DNA of 64,000 nt from the NCBI GenBank assembly GCA_026196045.1, contig JAPHRJ010000042.1, positions 4,151 through 68,150 of the forward strand. Direction: 5' to 3'. Both the position numbers and the translations under genes were made by a program. How positions within the stretch are numbered: the first letter of the stretch is position 1; every line of letters begins with the position of its first letter. Below are positions 828 to 12,302 of the stretch, piece after piece. The notes under the pieces are model-generated. The model had not been told where the DNA came from. It did not search any database and saw only the letters and a list, made by a program, of their open reading frames with translations. This stretch comes from Gammaproteobacteria bacterium. GTDB lineage: Bacteria > Pseudomonadota > Gammaproteobacteria > UBA6429 > Thiohalophilaceae.

Positions 828-3065
828 CTATTCAATAACCTGGGGGCCTAATACACGTAATACTTCGTAAATTGTCGTTTGACCACTATCTACTTTTTTA
901 TAGGCATCCTGCAATATGCTACTCATACCCTGTTGTGTGGCCGCCTGAGTAAGTTCTCCAATATTGGCACCGGCAGCAATCATATTTTTCAAATCTGTGC
1001 CGGGCACCAGAATTTCATAGATACCAATTCGCCCGCTATATCCCGTATGATTACATTGTTTACAACCTGTTCCCTCAAATGTCTGCAGATTGTCATTTTT
1101 AAACACAGGACCCAGTTGATGTAAATCCTCGTCCCGAATCGCAACAGGCGCTCTGCAGACCTCACAGATCTTGCGCACCAGCCGCTGGGCGATAATTGCT
1201 TCTAATGCGGTCGATACAATATAGGGCTTTAGCCCCAGATCCAGAAGTCGAGCGATAGTTGCCACCGCCGAGTTGGTATGCAGTGTCGAAAAAACCAGAT
1301 GCCCTGTCAGGGCCGCATTAAAGGCCACTTCTGCAGTTTCAATATCCCTAATCTCACCCAGAAGAACAACATCGGGATCCTGGCGCAGAATGGCACGAAG
1401 TACCGTTGCAAAACTGAGACCGACCTTATCCTTCACCATCACCTGGCCGGCCATATCCAGATAGTATTCAACCGGGTCCTCAATGGTGACATAGTTCTTA
1501 TCGGCTGTAGCATTATGCTGCAGGAGTGAATACAGGGTTGTAGTTTTGCCGCTTCCAGTAGGCCCGGTTGCGAGGATAATGCCCTGAGGCTTTTTAATTA
1601 CATTGACCACTCTATTGAAGTCCTCTGTTTCCAGACCCAACTGGTTAACTTCATGGATCGATGAATTACGATCCAGTAAACGCATAACAATCTTTTCACC
1701 ATTAATGGTCGGTAATGTTGAAATACGCAGGTCAATAATGCGCATTGGTGTCTTTACCGTAATACGACCGTCCTGTGGTCGACGACGCTCTGTAATATCA
1801 AGTTCAGCCATCACCTTGATACGTGAAACCAGCGACATATGCAGGCTATGGGGTATCTGAATCTTGTCAGACAAAATACCATCGGTTCGATAACGCACCA
1901 CGACACTATTGGTACGAGGATGAATATGAATATCACTGGCCTGATAACGTATTGCTTCCAGAATAATGGCATTGACCAGGCGAATGGCCGGAGGCTCATC
2001 TGAACCGTGTAATAAATCCTCCAGTGTCAGATCATCATCATCATCAAGAATGATCTCGATCGCCTCAAAGGGATCTGTACTTGATATCAGGGTTTCCAGA
2101 TCATCAAAATTGATATCCTCATCACCATAAACCTCGGTAATTTTATCCTGAATATCGGCAGCATTCGCCATGACGGCCTGGATCTCCAGACCAACGGTAA
2201 AGCGCAGATCATCTATCAGCCCCATATCCATCGGATCTGCCATAGCCAGTAACAAACGCCGGTTTTCCTGTTTTAAAGGTAAAACTAACTGTCGCTCACA
2301 AAAGCTGCGCGGGATCAATGATGATATAGCCGAATCAACCTGGAACTCAGCTAGTGAGACTTCATCGACCAACAAATCTTTTTTTAGAATATCGCGAATT
2401 TTTTTCTCCGCGACCCATTCTTTATCCAGGAGGATCCGGATGGTGGGAATTTTCTTCGCCTGCTGTATTTTATAAAGTTCCTGTACCTGTTTGTCATTCA
2501 GGAGATTGCATTTATGCAACATAATAGCAAGCTGACTGCGATTACTGACAGCCAGTTTGGACAGCTCCGATATTTCCTTCGCCCTTTTCTCATTTTGTTT
2601 TTGCAGTATTTTATTGCGCTGAATCAGATCATGCTGTTCCAGTGCCAGACTGACAGTAACGCGCAGGTCATCATCATTCCAGGGCTTGAGGATGAATTTA
2701 TAAACGGCACCTTCCTTGATAGCACTCATTACCGCATCCGTATCTGCGTGGCCCGTTAGCATAATACGGATAGTTTCAGGATGTTGTTTCTTGACCCTCC
2801 TCAGCAACTCACCACCATTCATCACTGGCATATTGAAATCAGAAATTATGAGCTGGAACACCGATCCATCCATAACTTTTAACGCCTCCTCACCACTGCC
2901 TGCAGTCATGATGTGATAGTTTTCCTGCCGGAACACTCGCTTCAAGGCATTTAGCACATTGGGTTCATCATCGACCAGGAGTATATGATAACCTGAGCTA
3001 GTCTCAACGGGCTGTTCGCTATCACCGGACTCTCCGGCTGTAAATAGTGAGGAATATTGTGACAT
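828..3065 (-). CDS. Response-regulator receiver fused to a GspE/PilB/MshE-family (type II/IV secretion) ATPase
   Basis: Receiver at aa ~27-145 (LLVDDEPNVL, acceptor in IISDFNMP, KPWNDDDL). T2SSE_N-like segment at aa ~240-310 (LIPRSFCERQLVLPL...LLLAMADPMD). ATPase core: Walker A GPTGSGKTTT, Asp box VTIEDPVEY, Walker B DPDVVLLGEIRD, His box GHLVFSTLHTN, and a tetracysteine CEVC...CKQC. The ATG lies 3 nt after the stop of the upstream kinase. Confidence 0.9.
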   Translation of the reverse strand: MSQYSSLFTAGESGDSEQPVETSSGYHILLVDDEPNVLNALKRVFRQENYHIMTAGSGEEALKVMDGSVFQLIISDFNMPVMNGGELLRRVKKQHPETIRIMLTGHADTDAVMSAIKEGAVYKFILKPWNDDDLRVTVSLALEQHDLIQRNKILQKQNEKRAKEISELSKLAVSNRSQLAIMLHKCNLLNDKQVQELYKIQQAKKIPTIRILLDKEWVAEKKIRDILKKDLLVDEVSLAEFQVDSAISSLIPRSFCERQLVLPLKQENRRLLLAMADPMDMGLIDDLRFTVGLEIQAVMANAADIQDKITEVYGDEDINFDDLETLISSTDPFEAIEIILDDDDDLTLEDLLHGSDEPPAIRLVNAIILEAIRYQASDIHIHPRTNSVVVRYRTDGILSDKIQIPHSLHMSLVSRIKVMAELDITERRRPQDGRITVKTPMRIIDLRISTLPTINGEKIVMRLLDRNSSIHEVNQLGLETEDFNRVVNVIKKPQGIILATGPTGSGKTTTLYSLLQHNATADKNYVTIEDPVEYYLDMAGQVMVKDKVGLSFATVLRAILRQDPDVVLLGEIRDIETAEVAFNAALTGHLVFSTLHTNSAVATIARLLDLGLKPYIVSTALEAIIAQRLVRKICEVCRAPVAIRDEDLHQLGPVFKNDNLQTFEGTGCKQCNHTGYSGRIGIYEILVPGTDLKNMIAAGANIGELTQAATQQGMSSILQDAYKKVDSGQTTIYEVLRVLGPQVIE

Positions 3066-3068
3066 GGT

Positions 3069-4298
3069 CTACTCCTTCACAGGCAAGATAATTGTGAAAG
3101 TAGTTCCTGTATCTTCCTGACTGTCTACCGTAATAGTACCGTTATGTGCCGCGATAATGTCACGACTGACTGTTAAACCCAGACCTGTTCCTTCACCAAC
3201 ATCATGCGTAGTATAAAATGGATCAAAAATCCGCCTCATAACCTCGGCGGACATACCCTTACCATTGTCACTAACCCGTATCACAATCTCCCTATTTATT
3301 AATCCGGACTCAATTTGAATCTTACCAGCAGCCTTTTTAATTGCCGTCACTGCATTCAATAATATATTGAGAAATACCTGCGCCAAATGCCCTGGTCGAC
3401 AACGCGTCAAAGGTAGTTCTCCTAATGCCAGCTCTAGTTCAGCCTTTTGTCCGATCTGGTTGGTAGCTACATTGCACACAGAGTGTATGATCTGATTTAT
3501 ATTCAGTGTTGCTTCTTCAGTGCGATCAACATTTGAAAAGTCCTTGAGATCAGACACTATACCTGCAACACGCTCTGCACCACTAACGCTTTCCTTCAGT
3601 AGTTCATTAAAGTCTTGCAACATATATTCAATATCACATTCATCCCATACCCTCTTCAAAACTGGCCCATTCAGTTCTTTTTGTATTTGTTCACTAAACT
3701 TAACAATATTTGAGACATAGTTTTGTGCGGTGGCAAGATTGCTAGTAATAAAACCAACTGGATTATTAATTTCGTGTGCAATACCGGCGGCTAACTGACC
3801 GACTGAGGCCAGTTTTTCAGCCTGATAGAGTTGACGCTGGGCATTTTCGATTGTTTTAACCTGTTCCTCTACACGTTGCTCCAGATTCTGCGCCAGTGCT
3901 TTGTATTTTTCCTCTGAATCCATCAAGGCTTCATGTTTCTTCTGTAGCGCTTCATAATCGGCATGAACTGCTTCAACATGTAAATTTGATGCCATCAGAT
4001 AACGTTCAGCACTTTTTAATATCTGTTCCACAAGAATTGTTGCGCTATGTGTCACCTTACTGTCACCTGCTTGCAAATAGGCAACGGGCTCCAGCTGAAT
4101 GGTTAACGGGATCCTGATACTGTCTATCCTGTCATTGTATTCACCCAGCACACTGTCGCCAGCCATATTCAGTATGCAAACTGACTCACCTAGTAAGCTC
4201 CTCAATGCCTGCAACAGTTTTTCCCTGTTAACGCCTTTTAACAGGTCATCTATACTGAGTTCACGATCAAATGCCGCAATGGGGGTTTCCTTCATCAT
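3069..4298 (-). CDS. Cytoplasmic sensor histidine kinase with an uncharacterised ~100-aa N-terminal domain
   Basis: No hydrophobic segments, a coiled coil, HisKA H-box AAGIAHEINNPVGF, and HATPase_c (DNGKGM, GTGLGL). Its ATG overlaps the GTPase stop (ATGATGA at 4293-4298). Confidence 0.9.
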   Translation of the reverse strand: MMKETPIAAFDRELSIDDLLKGVNREKLLQALRSLLGESVCILNMAGDSVLGEYNDRIDSIRIPLTIQLEPVAYLQAGDSKVTHSATILVEQILKSAERYLMASNLHVEAVHADYEALQKKHEALMDSEEKYKALAQNLEQRVEEQVKTIENAQRQLYQAEKLASVGQLAAGIAHEINNPVGFITSNLATAQNYVSNIVKFSEQIQKELNGPVLKRVWDECDIEYMLQDFNELLKESVSGAERVAGIVSDLKDFSNVDRTEEATLNINQIIHSVCNVATNQIGQKAELELALGELPLTRCRPGHLAQVFLNILLNAVTAIKKAAGKIQIESGLINREIVIRVSDNGKGMSAEVMRRIFDPFYTTHDVGEGTGLGLTVSRDIIAAHNGTITVDSQEDTGTTFTIILPVKE

Positions 4299-4969: not shown

Positions 4970-5503
4970 TTAAACATCATCCTCACTCAGGATAATAGAG
5001 CCATCCGTGGCCCAGTCCACCGAAAATAATTCCGGATGTTGATTTTTATATTGTTCAAGTATCTGTTTTCGTTTATCGAGTTCTTTCTGCTGTGCCCTGA
5101 CCTGGTCAGCAAGATGACGGTTTTCTACTAGCACATCTCGGAATGCCAATGCCTGTTTAATGGTAGAAATAAGTTCATAATCCTGCCAGGGCTTGGTTAC
5201 AAAGCGGTATATTTCGGCGTTATTAATTGCACCAAGCAGGGCTTCCAGATCCGTATGTCCACTGAGGATCAAACGCATAGAATTGGGTTGCAGGTTTTTT
5301 ACCTCACTGAGAAATTCGACCCCATTCATCTCAGGCATACGGTAATCAGAGAGAAACAAATCAAAATTAGTAACCTGAGCGCGTTTAAGTGCATCTTTCA
5401 CATTGGAATATGATTCTATTTCCCAGTCAGTCTGTCCCCTGAATATACGCTCCAGAGCTTTAAGAATATTTTCCTCGTCATCAACAAGCATAATCTGGTA
5501 CAT
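4970..5503 (-). CDS. Stand-alone response-regulator receiver with a ~55-aa coiled C-terminal tail
   Basis: MYQIMLVDDEENILK..., acceptor LFLSDYRMPEMNG, KPWQDYEL. I chose the internal ATG at 5503 because GGAGAA lies 6-7 nt upstream and the longer ORF would overlap the upstream gene. Confidence 0.85.
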   Translation of the reverse strand: MYQIMLVDDEENILKALERIFRGQTDWEIESYSNVKDALKRAQVTNFDLFLSDYRMPEMNGVEFLSEVKNLQPNSMRLILSGHTDLEALLGAINNAEIYRFVTKPWQDYELISTIKQALAFRDVLVENRHLADQVRAQQKELDKRKQILEQYKNQHPELFSVDWATDGSIILSEDDV

Positions 5504-5504
5504 G

Positions 5505-6851
5505 TTATTTCTCCTTATCCGCCAATACGTAAATTTCCAGCTCATAATCTATCGCTTCTTCAAGATTATAAATACGTTCAATAATGCCTTCGGTCAGACA
5601 ATGTCCCTGAGAGAGCAACAGTATGTCATCCTGTATGATTAAATCCCGTGAGAGCACCATACCACTAGCCAGCCCATTTGATTTTAAACGGCGTTCAGCT
5701 ACATGTTCACTGCGTTCCGCCAGACGACTGATAACTTTGCGGAATATATCAACAGATTTAGGGTCATAAAAACTACCCCGGTGTCTGATGATATAGTCTC
5801 GCGCATCACTTGAATTCAAAAATTCTGTCACCAACAGTCCCTGTTGGAGATCATAGTAGTCACCCGCCACTTTTAGTATAAGTGCGGCGACAGGGATAGA
5901 ATCACCTTTCCGTTTTTCTGGATAGCCTGAACCATCAATATGTTCGTGTTGATGATGTATCAGACGTGCCGCATCCTGTAATGGTTCCAGAGCCATTAAT
6001 ATTCCTTCACCCACAATAGGATGTTGAGTATATGTTTTGTGCTCACTATCATTCATAGTATTGAATGATTTTTTCAGTAGTGTATCGCTGAGGCTGATTT
6101 TACCGACGTTACGTAATAGTGCGGCAAAGCGAAGCTGTTGAGTATCAGCCTCATCCATGCCCATTTCTATTGCCATATGTTCAGCCAGTTCAGCGATCTT
6201 ACGTGTCCGACCACTGGTCTGATGTTCACGCATTTCAATAATATTTGAGAACACTTCAACGGTAGAACGATAACTATCATTTAATGACTCATGTGCAAGT
6301 TCCAGGAAACTCACGGTTTGCTGTAACTCCCCTGTGCGTGCGGCTACTTTATCTTCCAGGCCAGCATTTAAGGTCTTAAGCTGTTTATTCTGCTTTCTAA
6401 TTACGACTTCAAGACGACGGCGTTCTTTTTCAAGCCGTTGTTGCTCAAGTGCCCGCTGCACAGTAAGTAGAATATCATTATCTTCCCATGGCTTACTGAT
6501 ATAGCGATAAATTTGTCCTTTGTTTACTGCATCAATCGTTGATGTAATATCTGAATAGCCTGTTAATAATATACGTACTGTCATAGGCCAGCGCTTAGCA
6601 ACTTCTTCCAGGAATGCAGCCCCATCCATCTCGGGCATACGCATATCAGAAATCACAAGGTCAATGGAATAGTGCTCCATAAACTTCAAACCTTCTGCCC
6701 CACTTTCTGCGGTTAAAATATGATAACCATGAGGACGAAAAAGGCGCTTTAAAGATGACAGGATGTTTGTCTCATCATCAACAAACAATAGGGTCGGAGG
6801 GTGTGACTTTTTCTGACCTGTCTGTGCTTCGGTATTAATTACTTTATCCAT
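5505..6851 (-). CDS. Response regulator with a degenerate HD-GYP output domain (RpfG-like architecture)
   Basis: Receiver (LLFVDDETNIL, VISDMRMPEMDG, KPWEDNDIL), a coiled coil, then an HD-GYP domain with HEHIDGSGYP. The canonical LHDIGK reads LRNVGK (CGT AAC at 6108-6113). The start is set at MDKVINTE (6851), just after the upstream stop. Confidence 0.88.
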   Translation of the reverse strand: MDKVINTEAQTGQKKSHPPTLLFVDDETNILSSLKRLFRPHGYHILTAESGAEGLKFMEHYSIDLVISDMRMPEMDGAAFLEEVAKRWPMTVRILLTGYSDITSTIDAVNKGQIYRYISKPWEDNDILLTVQRALEQQRLEKERRRLEVVIRKQNKQLKTLNAGLEDKVAARTGELQQTVSFLELAHESLNDSYRSTVEVFSNIIEMREHQTSGRTRKIAELAEHMAIEMGMDEADTQQLRFAALLRNVGKISLSDTLLKKSFNTMNDSEHKTYTQHPIVGEGILMALEPLQDAARLIHHQHEHIDGSGYPEKRKGDSIPVAALILKVAGDYYDLQQGLLVTEFLNSSDARDYIIRHRGSFYDPKSVDIFRKVISRLAERSEHVAERRLKSNGLASGMVLSRDLIIQDDILLLSQGHCLTEGIIERIYNLEEAIDYELEIYVLADKEK

Positions 6852-6858
6852 AATTAAT

Positions 6859-8139
6859 TCATGCTTCCTTTGCTTCTTCTGAACTCTGGGAAACAGGCAA
6901 CCAAACTTTGAAAGTTGTTCCTTTTCCAGCTTCACTCTGAACATCAATGTTTCCATGGTGTTTATTTATAATCCCATACGATAATGATAATCCAAGTCCC
7001 GTCCCCTTCCCTACTTCCTTTGTTGTAAAAAAAGGATCGAATATCTTTTTCATATTCTCCGGTTCAATTCCTTTTCCTGTATCACTTATTTCTATCCATA
7101 TCTGCTCATCCTGTTTTCCAGTACGAACAGTTATTACGCCACGTTCTTCAATTGCATGTGCGGCATTTACCAATAGATTCATAAAGACCTGATTTACCTG
7201 TGATGCAAGACATTCAATATCAGGTAATTCGCCATATTCTTTTATGACTTCCGCCTTATATTTTATCTCGTTATTTACAATATTCAGTGTGCTGTCCAGG
7301 CCACGATGAATATTCGCCCATTGCCATTCAGCTTCATCAACATGAGAGAAGTCCTTGAGGTCCTGAACAATCCCTTTTACTCTCGCAATACCTTCGCGGG
7401 ATTCAGAGACCAGTTCCTGCATGTCACGTTTTAAATAGCCTAAATCCAGTTCCTGTTTAAGTTTTAGTAACTGTTCAAGTTTATCGCCACCTGATTCAAT
7501 CATTGACTCCAGGTTTTCATACGCCTCCAGTAACTGACAAATATCAGAAACATAAGTTTGTAACGTAGCTAAATTCGAAAAAACATATCCCACGGGGTTA
7601 TTGATTTCATGGGCAACGCCAGCAGCAAGCTGGCCTATTGATGCTAGCTTTTCTGACTGTAGTAATTGTTCATGCGTTTCATGTAAATGTTTATTCGCTT
7701 CCAGAAGATCGTCATGACTTTTTTTCAACTCCTGCTGTGTCTTTCGCGATTCCTCATCTGCACGATACAAACGAATTGCGGTATTAATACAGTGATGCAA
7801 TATTTCTGCATTCAGACTGTCCTTTGAAAGATAGTCTGAGGCACCGGCACGCAGTAGATCTACAATCAGTCGCTCATCAGGCTGGCCTGTCAGAATAACC
7901 ACCGGTATACCCAGTTTCTTCTCCTGGATACTGTTTAACATTGTCAGCCCATCACCATCTGGCAACATATAATCAAGTAATGCGCAGTCATATTGCGTTT
8001 TTGTCATGGCTTCAATAGCACCAGCGACACTATTTGACTCATCAATTCTGATATCAGGTTTACTTGCGCTCAGCGCACGGCAAACCGCCATGCGATCCAC
8101 GTCGTCATCATCCACAACAAGTATTTTTAGTTCACTCAA
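6859..8139 (-). CDS. Hybrid receiver-histidine kinase (N-terminal REC, then HisKA and HATPase_c)
   Basis: ILVVDDDDVDR with acceptor ALLDYMLPDGDG. H-box AAGVAHEINNPVGY, paralogous to the kinase at 3069-4298. DTGKGI and GTGLGL. TTG start with GGAGAA about 8 nt upstream. Confidence 0.9.
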   Translation of the reverse strand: MSELKILVVDDDDVDRMAVCRALSASKPDIRIDESNSVAGAIEAMTKTQYDCALLDYMLPDGDGLTMLNSIQEKKLGIPVVILTGQPDERLIVDLLRAGASDYLSKDSLNAEILHHCINTAIRLYRADEESRKTQQELKKSHDDLLEANKHLHETHEQLLQSEKLASIGQLAAGVAHEINNPVGYVFSNLATLQTYVSDICQLLEAYENLESMIESGGDKLEQLLKLKQELDLGYLKRDMQELVSESREGIARVKGIVQDLKDFSHVDEAEWQWANIHRGLDSTLNIVNNEIKYKAEVIKEYGELPDIECLASQVNQVFMNLLVNAAHAIEERGVITVRTGKQDEQIWIEISDTGKGIEPENMKKIFDPFFTTKEVGKGTGLGLSLSYGIINKHHGNIDVQSEAGKGTTFKVWLPVSQSSEEAKEA

Positions 8140-8617: not shown

Positions 8618-11242
8618 CTATGCAACCTGTTCCTCACTAGTCTCTACCGATACGACCTTTCCTTTTACCGGCAGGGTAAAACGGAATACGGCACCTTTTC
8701 CTTCTTCTGATTCTATTTCAACCTCTCCACCCAGTTCATTGACAATTTTCTTTACCAGCGTCAGTCCAACACCGGTGCTTTCTACACTATCGCGGGCCTG
8801 CAGCGTCTGAAACATATTAAATATTCTGTCATGGTATTCAGCGGCAATACCTGGCCCATCATCAGCAACACTGAATTCATAATATAGTACATTAAAGTCA
8901 GAATTATTCTGGCTATCCATATTGTCTTTACTGGTGATCAGTTTGCCCTCCAGTGTCCGTTCACGAACAGAAATATGAATATGGCCGTTATCCTTATGAT
9001 GGTACTTGATTGCATTACTAATCAAATTTGAAAAAACCTGAAATAGGGGAACACGGGCCGTCCTGACTAACGGCATACCAGGACTGATATCAATAGACAG
9101 ATCCTTGCAATCCAGTCCCTGCAGAATGTCCTTCAGCAGTCCAGATACATCTACCATTTCCATTTCCATATCCACGCGACCGGCCCGTGAATACTGTAAA
9201 ATGCCATTAATCAGTCCTTCCATGCGTGCTACTCGCCCACGCAACAGATCCATCTGCTTGCGAGTGCTGTCGGTCATAACGTCAGTAAGGTCTTCTTCTA
9301 TCCACTGAGAGAGGTTTGCAATTGCACGTAGTGGTGCCTTGAGATCATGAGATGTCACATAGGCAAACTGATCCAGTTCATGGTTGATACGCTCCAGTTC
9401 AACAAAAGCCCGCTTGCTTTCGGTTACGTCCGTATGTGAACCGGCAATTCGTACCGGGAAACCGTCCTCATCCAGCAATGCCAGACCTCGACAATGCATC
9501 CAGAGGTATTCGCCCGTTTTGCTTCGTACCCGGTATTCGATTGAAAAGGAACTGTTATCACCCGCCATACAGTCTGCCCATACATCCAGTGCATAGCCCA
9601 GATCATCGGGATGAATAAGACTCTGCAAGGCGATAAAGTTATTTTCAACCTCATACTCGGCATAACCCAGCATATTTTTCCAGCGCGATGAAAAATATAT
9701 CTGATCACGAGTCAAATCCCAGTCCCAGATACCATCCTGCGTTCCCCTTGTTACCAGTGAAAACCGCTCCTCACTGAGACGCAAGGCTTCCTCACTTTTC
9801 CTGCGTTGGGAAATATCACGCACAATACCAATAAAATGGACGCCTTCATGTTCCATTGGCAACTCACTTACTGACAGCTCTATTGGAAATTCATTACCAT
9901 CACTCCGTAATGCCGTTATCTCACGCGGTCCCTTGTTGATTATCTCTCCTTTGAGGGTGCCCCAATAATTTTCCTGATCAATATCTTGCTTATCGGTATC
10001 GGGAGCGAGCATTAACATACTTACATTCCGGCCTATCACTTCCCTGGCGTAATAACCAAACATACATTCGGCCGTGCGACTAAAACTTTCCACAACGCCT
10101 TGTGCGTTAATCGTAATAATACCATCGGCCGCATTCTCAATAATGGCATTTATCTTTTGTTTACTCTGTGTAAGCGCAACGACACTCTGCCGCAGATCTA
10201 CCTGCATCATTCTGCGTGCGCGCTGATTACGCAAAAACAGTATTAATATCACGACAAAAACGACCAGTACTAATAATGAAATTAACCACAGCAGACTCTT
10301 TTTCTTTTGTAACTCTTTTGACTGACTTTTAAACATCCCATCAAGTTCATCTTCTGTCGCATCAAATAGCCTGTATAACACACCCAATGTTTTCGTCCCT
10401 GCAGCGAAATAATTTTCACTCGACATACGTAATTGCGGCGTATCCCCTGTCTGTTTCTGTACCAGCAGTAAGAAATACCTGATACCTTCATTTACATCCT
10501 GCAGCTGTGGTAACAAGTTTGACCGCAGTTCCGGGTTGACAAGAAAAAGCACGTCCATATTCCGTTGCAGTTTATCCATTTCAATCTTAATAGACTCCTG
10601 CAGTATCGTGATTGGTTTAGTATCTGTCTCCGCAAGTTCGCTGTGCGTCACAATACCCGTTCCCATTCCTCTTATCTGGGCAATACTTTCTATTAACCTG
10701 GGTAACACAATTATGGATTCAGCAAGGTAGTAGGTATCCCTTCTTTTATCGGCGGTAAGACGAAAGAGATCAATCCCTTCATGCATGGAGGAGAGGTACT
10801 TTTCAATTATTACAGTATGTGCCGCAAACGTACCTGCTGGTGACATACGTGGATACTGTTGTAACAGTACATGCCAGTCTCTAAGCCACACCTTTTGGTT
10901 TTCTTTTACACCCGGCATCATTTGAATGGTGGGAAAACGATCCTGTATTTGCTGAATGTCCGCATTAATGTGTTGCGCCAGCTCTGGCAAGCTATCCCTG
11001 AAACCCTCTTTTCCGCTAAGGTAAGCGTAAGCCATACCACGATGTTGCTGAATATGATCAAGTAATACCCGCATGGATTCAATATAATCAATACCGATTT
11101 TCTGCTGGCTAATCAGGTGGCTTCTTGCCTCAAGCTCACTGCTAAGCAGATAAATGATGCTCGCAAAGGGCAACACCAGCATCAGTAACAGTAAGGTAAG
11201 GCTCAGGCTGTCTGTTGGTATTTTTCTATTGTGGTTGACCAT
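8618..11242 (-). CDS. Membrane sensor histidine kinase: periplasmic NIT-like domain, then two PAS domains, HisKA and HATPase_c
   Basis: Two TM segments (LTLLLLMLVLPFASIIYLL and LWLISLLVLVVFVVILILFL) bracket ~300 aa containing HIQQHRGMAYAYLSG and IAQIRGMGTGIV, which resemble NIT-domain motifs. Two PAS modules follow. H-box YVTSHDLKAPL, DDGPGI, GVGL. Confidence 0.85.
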   Translation of the reverse strand: MVNHNRKIPTDSLSLTLLLLMLVLPFASIIYLLSSELEARSHLISQQKIGIDYIESMRVLLDHIQQHRGMAYAYLSGKEGFRDSLPELAQHINADIQQIQDRFPTIQMMPGVKENQKVWLRDWHVLLQQYPRMSPAGTFAAHTVIIEKYLSSMHEGIDLFRLTADKRRDTYYLAESIIVLPRLIESIAQIRGMGTGIVTHSELAETDTKPITILQESIKIEMDKLQRNMDVLFLVNPELRSNLLPQLQDVNEGIRYFLLLVQKQTGDTPQLRMSSENYFAAGTKTLGVLYRLFDATEDELDGMFKSQSKELQKKKSLLWLISLLVLVVFVVILILFLRNQRARRMMQVDLRQSVVALTQSKQKINAIIENAADGIITINAQGVVESFSRTAECMFGYYAREVIGRNVSMLMLAPDTDKQDIDQENYWGTLKGEIINKGPREITALRSDGNEFPIELSVSELPMEHEGVHFIGIVRDISQRRKSEEALRLSEERFSLVTRGTQDGIWDWDLTRDQIYFSSRWKNMLGYAEYEVENNFIALQSLIHPDDLGYALDVWADCMAGDNSSFSIEYRVRSKTGEYLWMHCRGLALLDEDGFPVRIAGSHTDVTESKRAFVELERINHELDQFAYVTSHDLKAPLRAIANLSQWIEEDLTDVMTDSTRKQMDLLRGRVARMEGLINGILQYSRAGRVDMEMEMVDVSGLLKDILQGLDCKDLSIDISPGMPLVRTARVPLFQVFSNLISNAIKYHHKDNGHIHISVRERTLEGKLITSKDNMDSQNNSDFNVLYYEFSVADDGPGIAAEYHDRIFNMFQTLQARDSVESTGVGLTLVKKIVNELGGEVEIESEEGKGAVFRFTLPVKGKVVSVETSEEQVA

Positions 11243-11456: not shown

Positions 11457-12302
11457 TCAGGACGCACTGTCAATCAGCTGATCAGAAAACCGGTTCAGGT
11501 TTTCAATTTCGCCCAGATAACTACGAATAATGTCCCAGTTCAGGCCTAAACGTGCGAGTACAGAGGATTTCAGGAAGGGAATAAGATCATCACCGCCATG
11601 GCCAATATTCAAACCACGACAAAGGATATCAGACAGGTGGATCAGTTCAGCAAGGGGCAAGGACGTTGCAGGCAACGAGTGATGACTCTTTATCGCATCG
11701 ACAACGGGTTTGGGAAGTTTCCAGCTCTGAGCGACCTGTGCCCCAACAAGCGTATGGTCAAAGCCGAGCACAGCCTGTTCCGCTTCCCTGATTAAGCAAT
11801 CATGCTCATCTCGATAGGCAAGTACTCGGGCGAAATCCTCTTCAAAGTAGACCGCCATTACCACCTTACCAATGTCATGCAGCAAACCCGCCGTAAACGC
11901 CAGCTCCTGATCCATGCCAGCGTGGTGAGCTAATACTCGCGCACAAATCCCCGTTCCAATCACATGTTGCCAGAACGAATGCCGGTCAAAGTTTTGATCC
12001 TCTGCGGGAGGAAAGTGCCCAATAATGCCAGCGGCAGTAACGATATTATATAAAGTATGGATACCCAACATGGTACCGGCATCTTTTAGAGAACCAATAT
12101 GCGCGGATAAACCATAAAAAGGTGAATTGGCAATATGTAAAATGCGGGCTGCAAGAGCTTGATCATGACTGGCTTCTTCCATCAACTCAGCCATTGCAAC
12201 ATCATCCCGTTGGAGTTGCGTCAACAGGTGCGTAACAATAACCGAAAGTGACGGTAACTGTTGAATTTCTTTACTAAGACTTTCACGTGTCAACTTAGCC
12301 AT
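11457..12302 (-). CDS. HDOD domain protein
   Basis: 281 aa. LPSLSVIVTHLL..., ILHIANSPFYG, GLLHDIGKVVM. These are typical HDOD signatures. Confidence 0.85.
   Translation of the reverse strand: MAKLTRESLSKEIQQLPSLSVIVTHLLTQLQRDDVAMAELMEEASHDQALAARILHIANSPFYGLSAHIGSLKDAGTMLGIHTLYNIVTAAGIIGHFPPAEDQNFDRHSFWQHVIGTGICARVLAHHAGMDQELAFTAGLLHDIGKVVMAVYFEEDFARVLAYRDEHDCLIREAEQAVLGFDHTLVGAQVAQSWKLPKPVVDAIKSHHSLPATSLPLAELIHLSDILCRGLNIGHGGDDLIPFLKSSVLARLGLNWDIIRSYLGEIENLNRFSDQLIDSAS

Follow-up and report, generated by a model that had tools for sequence, protein, structure and literature searches.

A minus-strand gene at positions 5505 to 6851 of a 64,000-nucleotide stretch of gammaproteobacterial DNA (Thiohalophilaceae; contig JAPHRJ010000042.1, positions 4,151 to 68,150; hereafter the window) encodes a response regulator of 448 amino acids in which a receiver domain is joined to a degenerate HD-GYP domain, a domain otherwise known from phosphodiesterases of cyclic di-GMP (c-di-GMP). 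We found that this domain reads RN where the enzymes carry their metal-binding HD dyad, that it has lost most of its metal ligands together with residues of the substrate loop, and that the altered state is fixed in a clade of relatives and held under purifying selection within a conserved gene context. These results make it probable, in our judgement, that the protein is a non-catalytic, protein-binding adaptor switched by phosphorylation. The gene and its parts are as follows.

5505..6851, minus strand: whole gene, encoding a receiver domain (REC), a long helix, a degenerate HD-GYP (RN-GYP) domain and a C-terminal domain, from the open reading frame (ORF), Pfam, NCBIfam and AlphaFold2 (AF2)
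6486..6794, minus strand: receiver domain, residues 20-122, with phospho-acceptor D69 (Pfam, conservation, structure matches)
6228..6485, minus strand: single helix of about 85 residues (123-208) between receiver and HD-GYP domain (AF2 helix 124-208)
5715..6227, minus strand: degenerate HD-GYP domain, residues 209-379 (Pfam HD_5, Foldseek, ligand map)
6108..6113, minus strand: CGT AAC, encoding R247 N248 at the place of the HD dyad, H221 D222 in PmGH (sequence, alignments)
5919..5957, minus strand: HHQHEHIDGSGYP, residues 299-311, with Q301 for PmGH H276, and with H302, E303 and the GYP loop kept (alignments)
5826..5864, minus strand: GDYYDLQQGLLVT, residues 330-342, with G330 for ligand D305 and Y333 for D308 (alignments)
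5523..5696, minus strand: family-specific C-terminal beta-beta-beta-alpha-beta domain, residues 386-443 (AF2 models, full-length and domain-only)

Loss of the metal site and of substrate contacts

We mapped the protein onto the metal ligands of the PmGH crystal structure (E185, H189, H221, D222, H250, H276, H277 and D305). Where HD-GYP enzymes have HDxGK, the regulator reads LLRNVGK (residues 245-251), with the lysine kept as K251; the plus strand at 6108-6113 is GTTACG, which is CGT AAC on the coding strand. Three independent alignments placed RN on the dyad (phmmer to 5Z7C, 4MCW and 4R8Z, the Pfam profile, and MAFFT of 124 family members), and no other HD pair can stand in for the lost ligands, as the protein is without any HD dipeptide. 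By the phmmer alignments, which also took in 9RBZ and agree with the family alignment, six of the eight ligands are lost (E185 to Q211, H189 to R215, H221 to R247, D222 to N248, H276 to Q301 and D305 to G330) and only two are retained (H250 as H277, H277 as H302). A preliminary description of the gene, made from its letters alone, had reported the change from HD to RN and called hydrolysis doubtful; alignment with characterised HD-GYP enzymes bears out both points and adds two ligand losses that it had not listed, those of H189 and E185.

The HHExxDGxGYP loop reads QHEHIDGSGYP in this protein, as previously described, with E303, D306, G307 and the GYP kept and the first histidine gone. Two histidines reported just upstream of this glutamine are indeed present (H299, H300) but are not conserved in the clade. 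GDYYDL, also described before, occupies residues 330-335, where Y333 replaces the structural residue D308 of PmGH. In place of the DALTSxRxYK loop the protein has YDLQQGLLVT, with the substrate contacts R314 and K317 changed to L339 and T342; in GDYYDLQQGLLVT, L339, V341 and T342 stand for the nucleotide-contacting R314, Y316 and K317 of PmGH (R650, Y652 and R653 of DvhD). The equivalent of PmGH I294 is kept as I319.

According to the PmGH paper, alanine at H189, H221, D222, H250, H276 or H277 abolishes activity, and four of these positions (H189, H221, D222 and H276) are substituted here. A di- or tri-metal centre could therefore no longer be held, and neither c-di-GMP nor cyclic GMP-AMP (cGAMP) would be hydrolysed, a loss that is well supported by the ligand map. 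It might be argued that H277, H302, E303, D306 and D331, together with R247, form a mononuclear or metal-independent site for phosphoester hydrolysis: two histidines and several acidic residues are conserved in the pocket, mononuclear enzymes of the HD superfamily exist (the PmGH paper calls them phosphomonoesterases), and the E185A and D305A mutants of PmGH keep some activity. We consider such retained catalysis highly improbable, since four of the six essential ligands of PmGH have become R, R, N and Q, which are unable to coordinate metals in the same way, since H302 is a tyrosine in 7 of the 37 RN relatives described below, and since every degenerate HD-GYP protein tested (HnoD, PA2572, DvhD and ECA3548) was inactive.

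The RN state is fixed in a clade and maintained by selection

A homologue search retrieved thousands of related proteins, a search for related loci returned 80 genome loci, and 124 non-identical family members were aligned. At the dyad position, 56 members have HD and 37 have RN; the remaining states are LD (12), HN (5), KD (5), RD (4), RS (2), HG (2) and LN (1). All 52 members that carry both HD and HHE have the equivalents of H189, H221, D222, H250, H276 and H277. HD/HHE is clearly the ancestral state of the family, and its ligand set suggests that these members are probably active. In the family alignment (loci L010-L080) they too, however, mostly carry an asparagine at the D305 position (49/52) and are variable at the E185 position, and they have a conserved Q..G motif instead of the R314/Y316/K317 loop. 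The asparagine and the missing R314 loop therefore mark the whole family as an atypical HD-GYP lineage whose substrate is uncertain.

Among the RN members, R247 is found in 37/37, N248 in 35/37, Q301 in 36/37 and G330 in 34/37. A maximum-likelihood tree placed the regulator within a clade of 33 sequences (SH-aLRT support 99), every one of which is RN or RS. Sequences with other degenerate states branch apart from it in groups of their own amid an HD background. The tree requires at least 10 state changes. A single gene slot of a conserved multi-kinase island has thus seen the HD dyad disappear five times or more. These repeated losses in one slot therefore suggest that catalysis is dispensable for the role of the slot.

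The Gallionellaceae and relatives form one of the separate lineages, with LD (one LN) for HD, HRE for HHE and mostly Y, C or F for H250 (loci L026, L028, L036, L042, L049, L056, L058, L064, L065, L067, L070, L072 and L073). Further separate lineages are KD/QHE, HN/QHE, HG/HLE and RD/YRE, and in several of the separate lineages the H221 position has turned basic (R or K). We also considered whether a salt bridge between R247 and D334 has taken over from the metal cluster. In the main RN clade, R247 does coincide with an acidic residue at 334. Where arginine arose independently (P0075/L011/L033, L019/L021 and the RD groups), residue 334 is A, S, T or G; we rejected the bridge because it is not replicated in these lineages.

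Comparison with the closest relative (L085, 94% amino acid identity) by the Nei-Gojobori method gave a ratio of non-synonymous to synonymous substitution rates (dN/dS) of 0.043 overall. The linker helix had the lowest value (0.024), followed by the HD-GYP domain (0.034; 52 synonymous against 9 non-synonymous differences), the part of the receiver that could be aligned (0.052) and the C-terminal domain (0.097). Within the HD-GYP domain, mean pairwise identity was 0.56 among RN members and 0.57 among HD members. The codons of R247 and N248 both differ synonymously from those of L085 (CGT/CGA and AAC/AAT). As RN is common to 37 relatives and is kept through synonymous codon changes, it is not a sequencing or translation artefact; the preliminary description had already excluded the latter. 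Its further suggestion of a functional non-enzyme is also supported: with a dN/dS of 0.034 and RN fixed across the clade, the HD-GYP domain is, on sequence grounds, functional, though not as a metal enzyme.

The protein is encoded by a minus-strand ORF running from 6851 to 5505, and its ATG at 6851 lies 7 nt past the TGA of the upstream kinase gene and is preceded by AAGGAAG, a Shine-Dalgarno-like sequence. An alternative 483-aa frame from 6956 runs into that kinase gene. That the gene is decaying or was misassembled, which the atypical motif alone might bring to mind, has practically no chance of being the explanation: the frame is intact and preceded by a Shine-Dalgarno-like sequence, the AF2 model is confident, selection is evident over the whole gene, and RN occurs in relatives from independent assemblies. 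The last two points already refute it.

Domain architecture

Searches against Pfam identified Response_reg at residues 22-131 (E 2.5e-22) and HD_5 (PF13487) at residues 199-365 (E 6.9e-38; 130.5 bits against a cut-off of 27.2; profile positions 1-169 of 170). Residues 21-442 match the full length of the NCBIfam model NF053512 (positions 1-422 of 422; 550.5 bits, cut-off 400), named 'response regulator c-di-GMP phosphodiesterase, NosR family'. The AF2 model, built on a 50-sequence alignment, has a predicted local distance difference test score (pLDDT) of 86 and places the receiver at residues 20-119, the helix at 124-208, the HD-GYP core at 215-379 and a small beta-beta-beta-alpha-beta domain at 386-443.

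In the receiver, D25, D26 and D69, the acidic pair and the acceptor, are near-invariant among 50 homologues (at least 90%), and T97 and K120 are invariant; its structure matches are 2RJN and 3HV2, both receivers of HD-domain regulators, at a root-mean-square deviation of 0.8-1.6 (phmmer, Foldseek). Control by phosphorylation, as proposed in the preliminary description, would fit this set of residues. The linker helix is probably a dimerisation stalk, by analogy with the stalks of PmGH and DvhD. For the HD-GYP core, Foldseek gave matches to 9RBZ (DvhD), 4R8Z and 4MCW, with a probability of 1.00.

The C-terminal domain was modelled with a pLDDT of about 85-90 both in the full-length protein and on its own, and is kept across the family with the motif L..GM.L.RDL....LLL.KG..L....I..I..E. 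Pfam returned nothing credible for it at E<=10, and a Foldseek search of the domain-only model against the PDB gave no match at E<0.1, the top one being Bd1817 (E 0.14).

Comparison with the metal-free receptor DvhD

DvhD, in which HD has become SQ and HH has become MN, binds c-di-GMP without metal and with sub-micromolar affinity, does not hydrolyse it, and loses its normal c-di-GMP response in an R650A single mutant and in a Y652A/R653A double mutant. By analogy, the RN pocket could, though improbably in our view, serve as a metal-free nucleotide receptor that binds but does not hydrolyse c-di-GMP, cGAMP, pGpG or some other phosphorylated ligand, and the protein would then integrate phosphorylation with the level of a second messenger. 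In favour of this, the domain of DvhD ranks among the best matches by fold, the RN clade hardly varies at the pocket residues R247, N248, Q301, H302, E303 and D331, and a basic residue at the H221 position, as seen in several lineages, could face a phosphate.

We mapped the contacts of the canonical DvhD site through a phmmer alignment, verifying the numbering offset on every residue that the paper names. Of the nine contacts, one is identical (the GYP tyrosine, Y621 to Y310) and two are conservative; the others mapped are Y523 to Q211, L577 to M266, K582 to H271, M646 to L335, R650 to L339, Y652 to V341, R653 to T342 and E668 to R358, so that the very residues of the response-disrupting mutants are lost. 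The hydroxyl of the GYP tyrosine touches the phosphate in both PmGH and DvhD, yet this position is freely exchanged in the RN clade (Y in 18 members, F in 17, C in 2), and the second basic residue, R215, stands at a site that varies within the clade (R, W, H, K or Q). The GYP that the preliminary description had found intact is thus intact in this protein but is not constrained in the clade. Because the equivalents of R650, Y652 and R653 are lost and the tyrosine alternates with phenylalanine, a receptor of the DvhD type is unlikely, and of the two roles that had been put forward, adaptor or receptor, the first appears to fit the protein better. The pocket residues are nevertheless so well conserved that a different ligand may be bound.

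A conserved signalling island surrounds the gene

The neighbouring genes referred to below are the following.

8618-11242, minus strand: PAS kinase
6859..8139, minus strand: REC-histidine kinase directly upstream, across a 7-nt gap (Pfam)
4970..5503, minus strand: short REC-plus-linker paralogue directly downstream, starting 2 nt past the stop of the RN-GYP gene
3069-4298, minus strand: soluble kinase of 409 aa
828-4960, minus strand: cassette of GTPase, kinase and REC-ATPase

The gene lies between apbC/metG and dcd, in an island whose genes all run in the same direction. The island begins with a REC-PAS protein, a small ORF, an HDOD protein, a NIT-like/PAS kinase, a REC protein, the REC-kinase and the RN-GYP regulator, and continues with the short REC, an Arf/Ras/MglA-like GTPase, the soluble kinase and a REC-MshEN-T2SSE ATPase, amounting to three kinases and six receivers. 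Many Gamma- and Betaproteobacteria have the same arrangement, among them Thioalkalispiraceae, Ectothiorhodospiraceae, Gallionellaceae, Sulfuricellaceae and Methylophilaceae. The REC-kinase adjoins the regulator upstream in the majority of the 80 loci, and it is the likeliest candidate for its phosphodonor.

The short REC, which lies downstream of the regulator in many related loci, matches positions 1-147 of the NosR model (162 bits), is 36% identical to the regulator's receiver and linker, and looks like a truncated paralogue of it. Together with these two, the receivers of the REC-PAS protein and the REC-ATPase form a set of four siblings, with 36-43% identity when the linker is counted in, each of which matches the REC-plus-linker part of the NosR profile; the remaining two receivers of the island have 20-27% identity to the four. 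Such siblings suggest a branched relay like that of the Hno system. They also bring up a phosphate sink, in which the receiver would drain phosphoryl groups from shared kinases and so tune its three siblings, with an output that is largely structural. The number of kinases and receivers and the REC-only paralogue next door would suit this arrangement. A sink needs no output domain, however, and here the HD-GYP and C-terminal domains (dN/dS 0.034 and 0.097) are under selection comparable to that on the receiver (0.052), and the neighbouring REC-only protein is already available for such a job; we therefore regard it as quite improbable.

The island is not of constant composition. Close RN relatives (L083/L084) occupy the same apbC...dcd slot without the GTPase/kinase/REC-ATPase cassette (L083 consists there of the regulator, the short REC and dcd), and in L001 dcd follows the regulator directly, the short REC being absent as well. 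The 3' modules of the island are therefore separable. We tested whether the degenerate state is tied to presence of the cassette and rejected this, as HD and degenerate members both occur with and without it and no clear correlation emerged. In the ATPase (828-3065, minus strand), the two MshEN c-di-GMP-binding motifs at residues about 175-235 are non-canonical (R to Q, G to A, G to N). Co-degeneration of HD-GYP and MshEN was likewise rejected: the motifs deviate from RLGxxLLxxGLL in 24/24 loci whatever the HD state, with no covariation.

The two soluble kinases at 3069-4298 and 6859-8139 (both minus strand), which flank the regulator, carry an H-E-I-N-N phosphatase-type motif, as is the case for NosK. 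For both, the best NCBIfam match is the T2SS_HK subfamily, at 245 and 371 bits, both under the cut-off of 450, and the 409-aa kinase has some 160 N-terminal residues without a recognisable domain. The first 330 residues of the PAS kinase (10253-11242, minus strand) give a sub-threshold match to the Pfam nitrate/nitrite-sensing domain NIT (E 0.0038; 18.1 bits against 24.9) that extends over 229 of 239 profile positions, and this NIT-like region may be the input domain of the island. The HDOD protein (11457-12302, minus strand) is a conserved island member upstream of the kinases and represents an HD-related domain thought to be non-catalytic. Neither FIST/NosP nor H-NOX was found in Pfam scans of all island ORFs or in the Pfam content of the neighbours of L081-L084. 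A nitric-oxide system linked to NosP or H-NOX was accordingly rejected, there being no FIST or H-NOX gene in the island or the related contexts examined.

A phosphorylation-switched adaptor as the probable role

Strong purifying selection has preserved the fold of the HD-GYP domain, its GYP loop and the C-terminal domain, and the output of the protein would therefore be non-catalytic. In the model that we favour, kinases of the island most likely phosphorylate the intact receiver at D69, the REC-histidine kinase encoded 7 nt upstream being the first candidate. The long helical stalk joins this receiver to an HD-GYP domain that would be unable to hold a metal centre, and phosphorylation probably re-sets the geometry of stalk and dimer. 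The altered geometry would then switch a putative partner that is bound or inhibited by the HD-GYP and C-terminal module, in the way that HnoD acts on HnoB.

Three points weigh against this model. Pfam found no EAL or GGDEF protein in the island for the regulator to act on, nor did the related contexts examined contain one; a simple scan of the whole window for GGDEF, EAL and PilZ motifs was negative as well. The strict conservation of R247, N248, Q301, H302, E303 and D331 would also fit a small-ligand pocket. Finally, the AF2 model is of a monomer only, and the stalk and dimer mechanism is drawn from PmGH and DvhD.

One more speculative idea, which we think distinctly unlikely, is that the former metal site of the RN clade has become a new metal-free pocket (the six residues just named) for a signal other than c-di-GMP and that this pocket, together with phosphorylation, gates the neighbouring cassette of MglA-type GTPase, kinase and receiver-fused PilB-type ATPase. 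If true, the at least five dyad losses would mean that the NosR-like family works mainly as a scaffold, with phosphodiesterase activity as an optional extra.

Relation to known HD-GYP proteins

The RN-GYP regulator is a pseudoenzyme of an already described type, represented by HnoD, NosR and PA2572, and falls into an existing curated family. NosR of Burkholderia pseudomallei (BPSS1648), a degenerate HG...GTP protein, is a substrate of the kinase NosK, and other c-di-GMP enzymes are its presumed targets. Our protein matches its family profile over the full length, including the C-terminal domain, and shares the combination of receiver and degenerate HD-GYP domain as well as an output presumed to be non-catalytic; this likeness is drawn from the profile and the published description. 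The two differ in their motifs (HG...GTP against RN...GYP) and in their surroundings, nosR being arranged as nosR-nosP-nosK with a FIST-domain nitric-oxide sensor that has no equivalent in our island.

HnoD of Shewanella oneidensis (SO_2541; HD to SE, HHE to QLE), as reported in a preprint and a review, has no phosphodiesterase activity and directly binds and inhibits the EAL regulator HnoB, an inhibition that is relieved by kinase input. Compared by description, both proteins combine a receiver with a degenerate HD-GYP domain and lie within a branched network of several kinases and regulators (three kinases and six receivers in our case). However, HnoB (REC-EAL) and H-NOX/HnoK have no counterpart in our island, and the substitutions differ. 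PA2572 of Pseudomonas aeruginosa (YN-GYP) shows no detectable c-di-GMP hydrolysis, has regulatory phenotypes, and has an output domain that is active once freed from its receiver. It shares with our protein the joining of a receiver to a non-canonical HD-GYP domain, but has a tyrosine where ours has an arginine, and it works with the orphan chemoreceptor PA2573 instead of a kinase island.

DvhD (PDB 9RBZ/9RC0) likewise carries a degenerate HD-GYP domain on a helical dimerisation stalk and is among the best structural matches, but it is a membrane dCache-PAS receptor and not a response regulator. With HnoD, PA2572 and NosR on one side and DvhD on the other, the adaptor and receptor options are therefore both precedented. 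The active enzymes (PmGH 4MCW, PA4781 4R8Z, V-cGAP3 5Z7C and the RpfG family) resemble our protein in fold, in REC-HD-GYP architecture, in the GYP loop and in keeping the equivalents of K251 (the lysine of HDxGK), E303 and I319; our protein lacks six of their eight metal ligands and the R314/K317 contacts.

The known picture of c-di-GMP signalling is unchanged by this protein. What is modestly new is the fixation of RN throughout a clade under strong selection, the finding that a single orthologous slot lost the dyad repeatedly and independently, and the absence of a nitric-oxide sensor partner. As the NCBIfam product name is 'c-di-GMP phosphodiesterase', automatic annotation would misname the regulator, and its sequence argues against that name. 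With it, a well-populated and strongly constrained RN-GYP clade joins the short list of HD-GYP pseudoenzymes made up of HnoD, PA2572, NosR and DvhD, and the repeated loss of the dyad under maintained selection in a single slot represents a natural experiment on the non-catalytic roles of HD-GYP domains.

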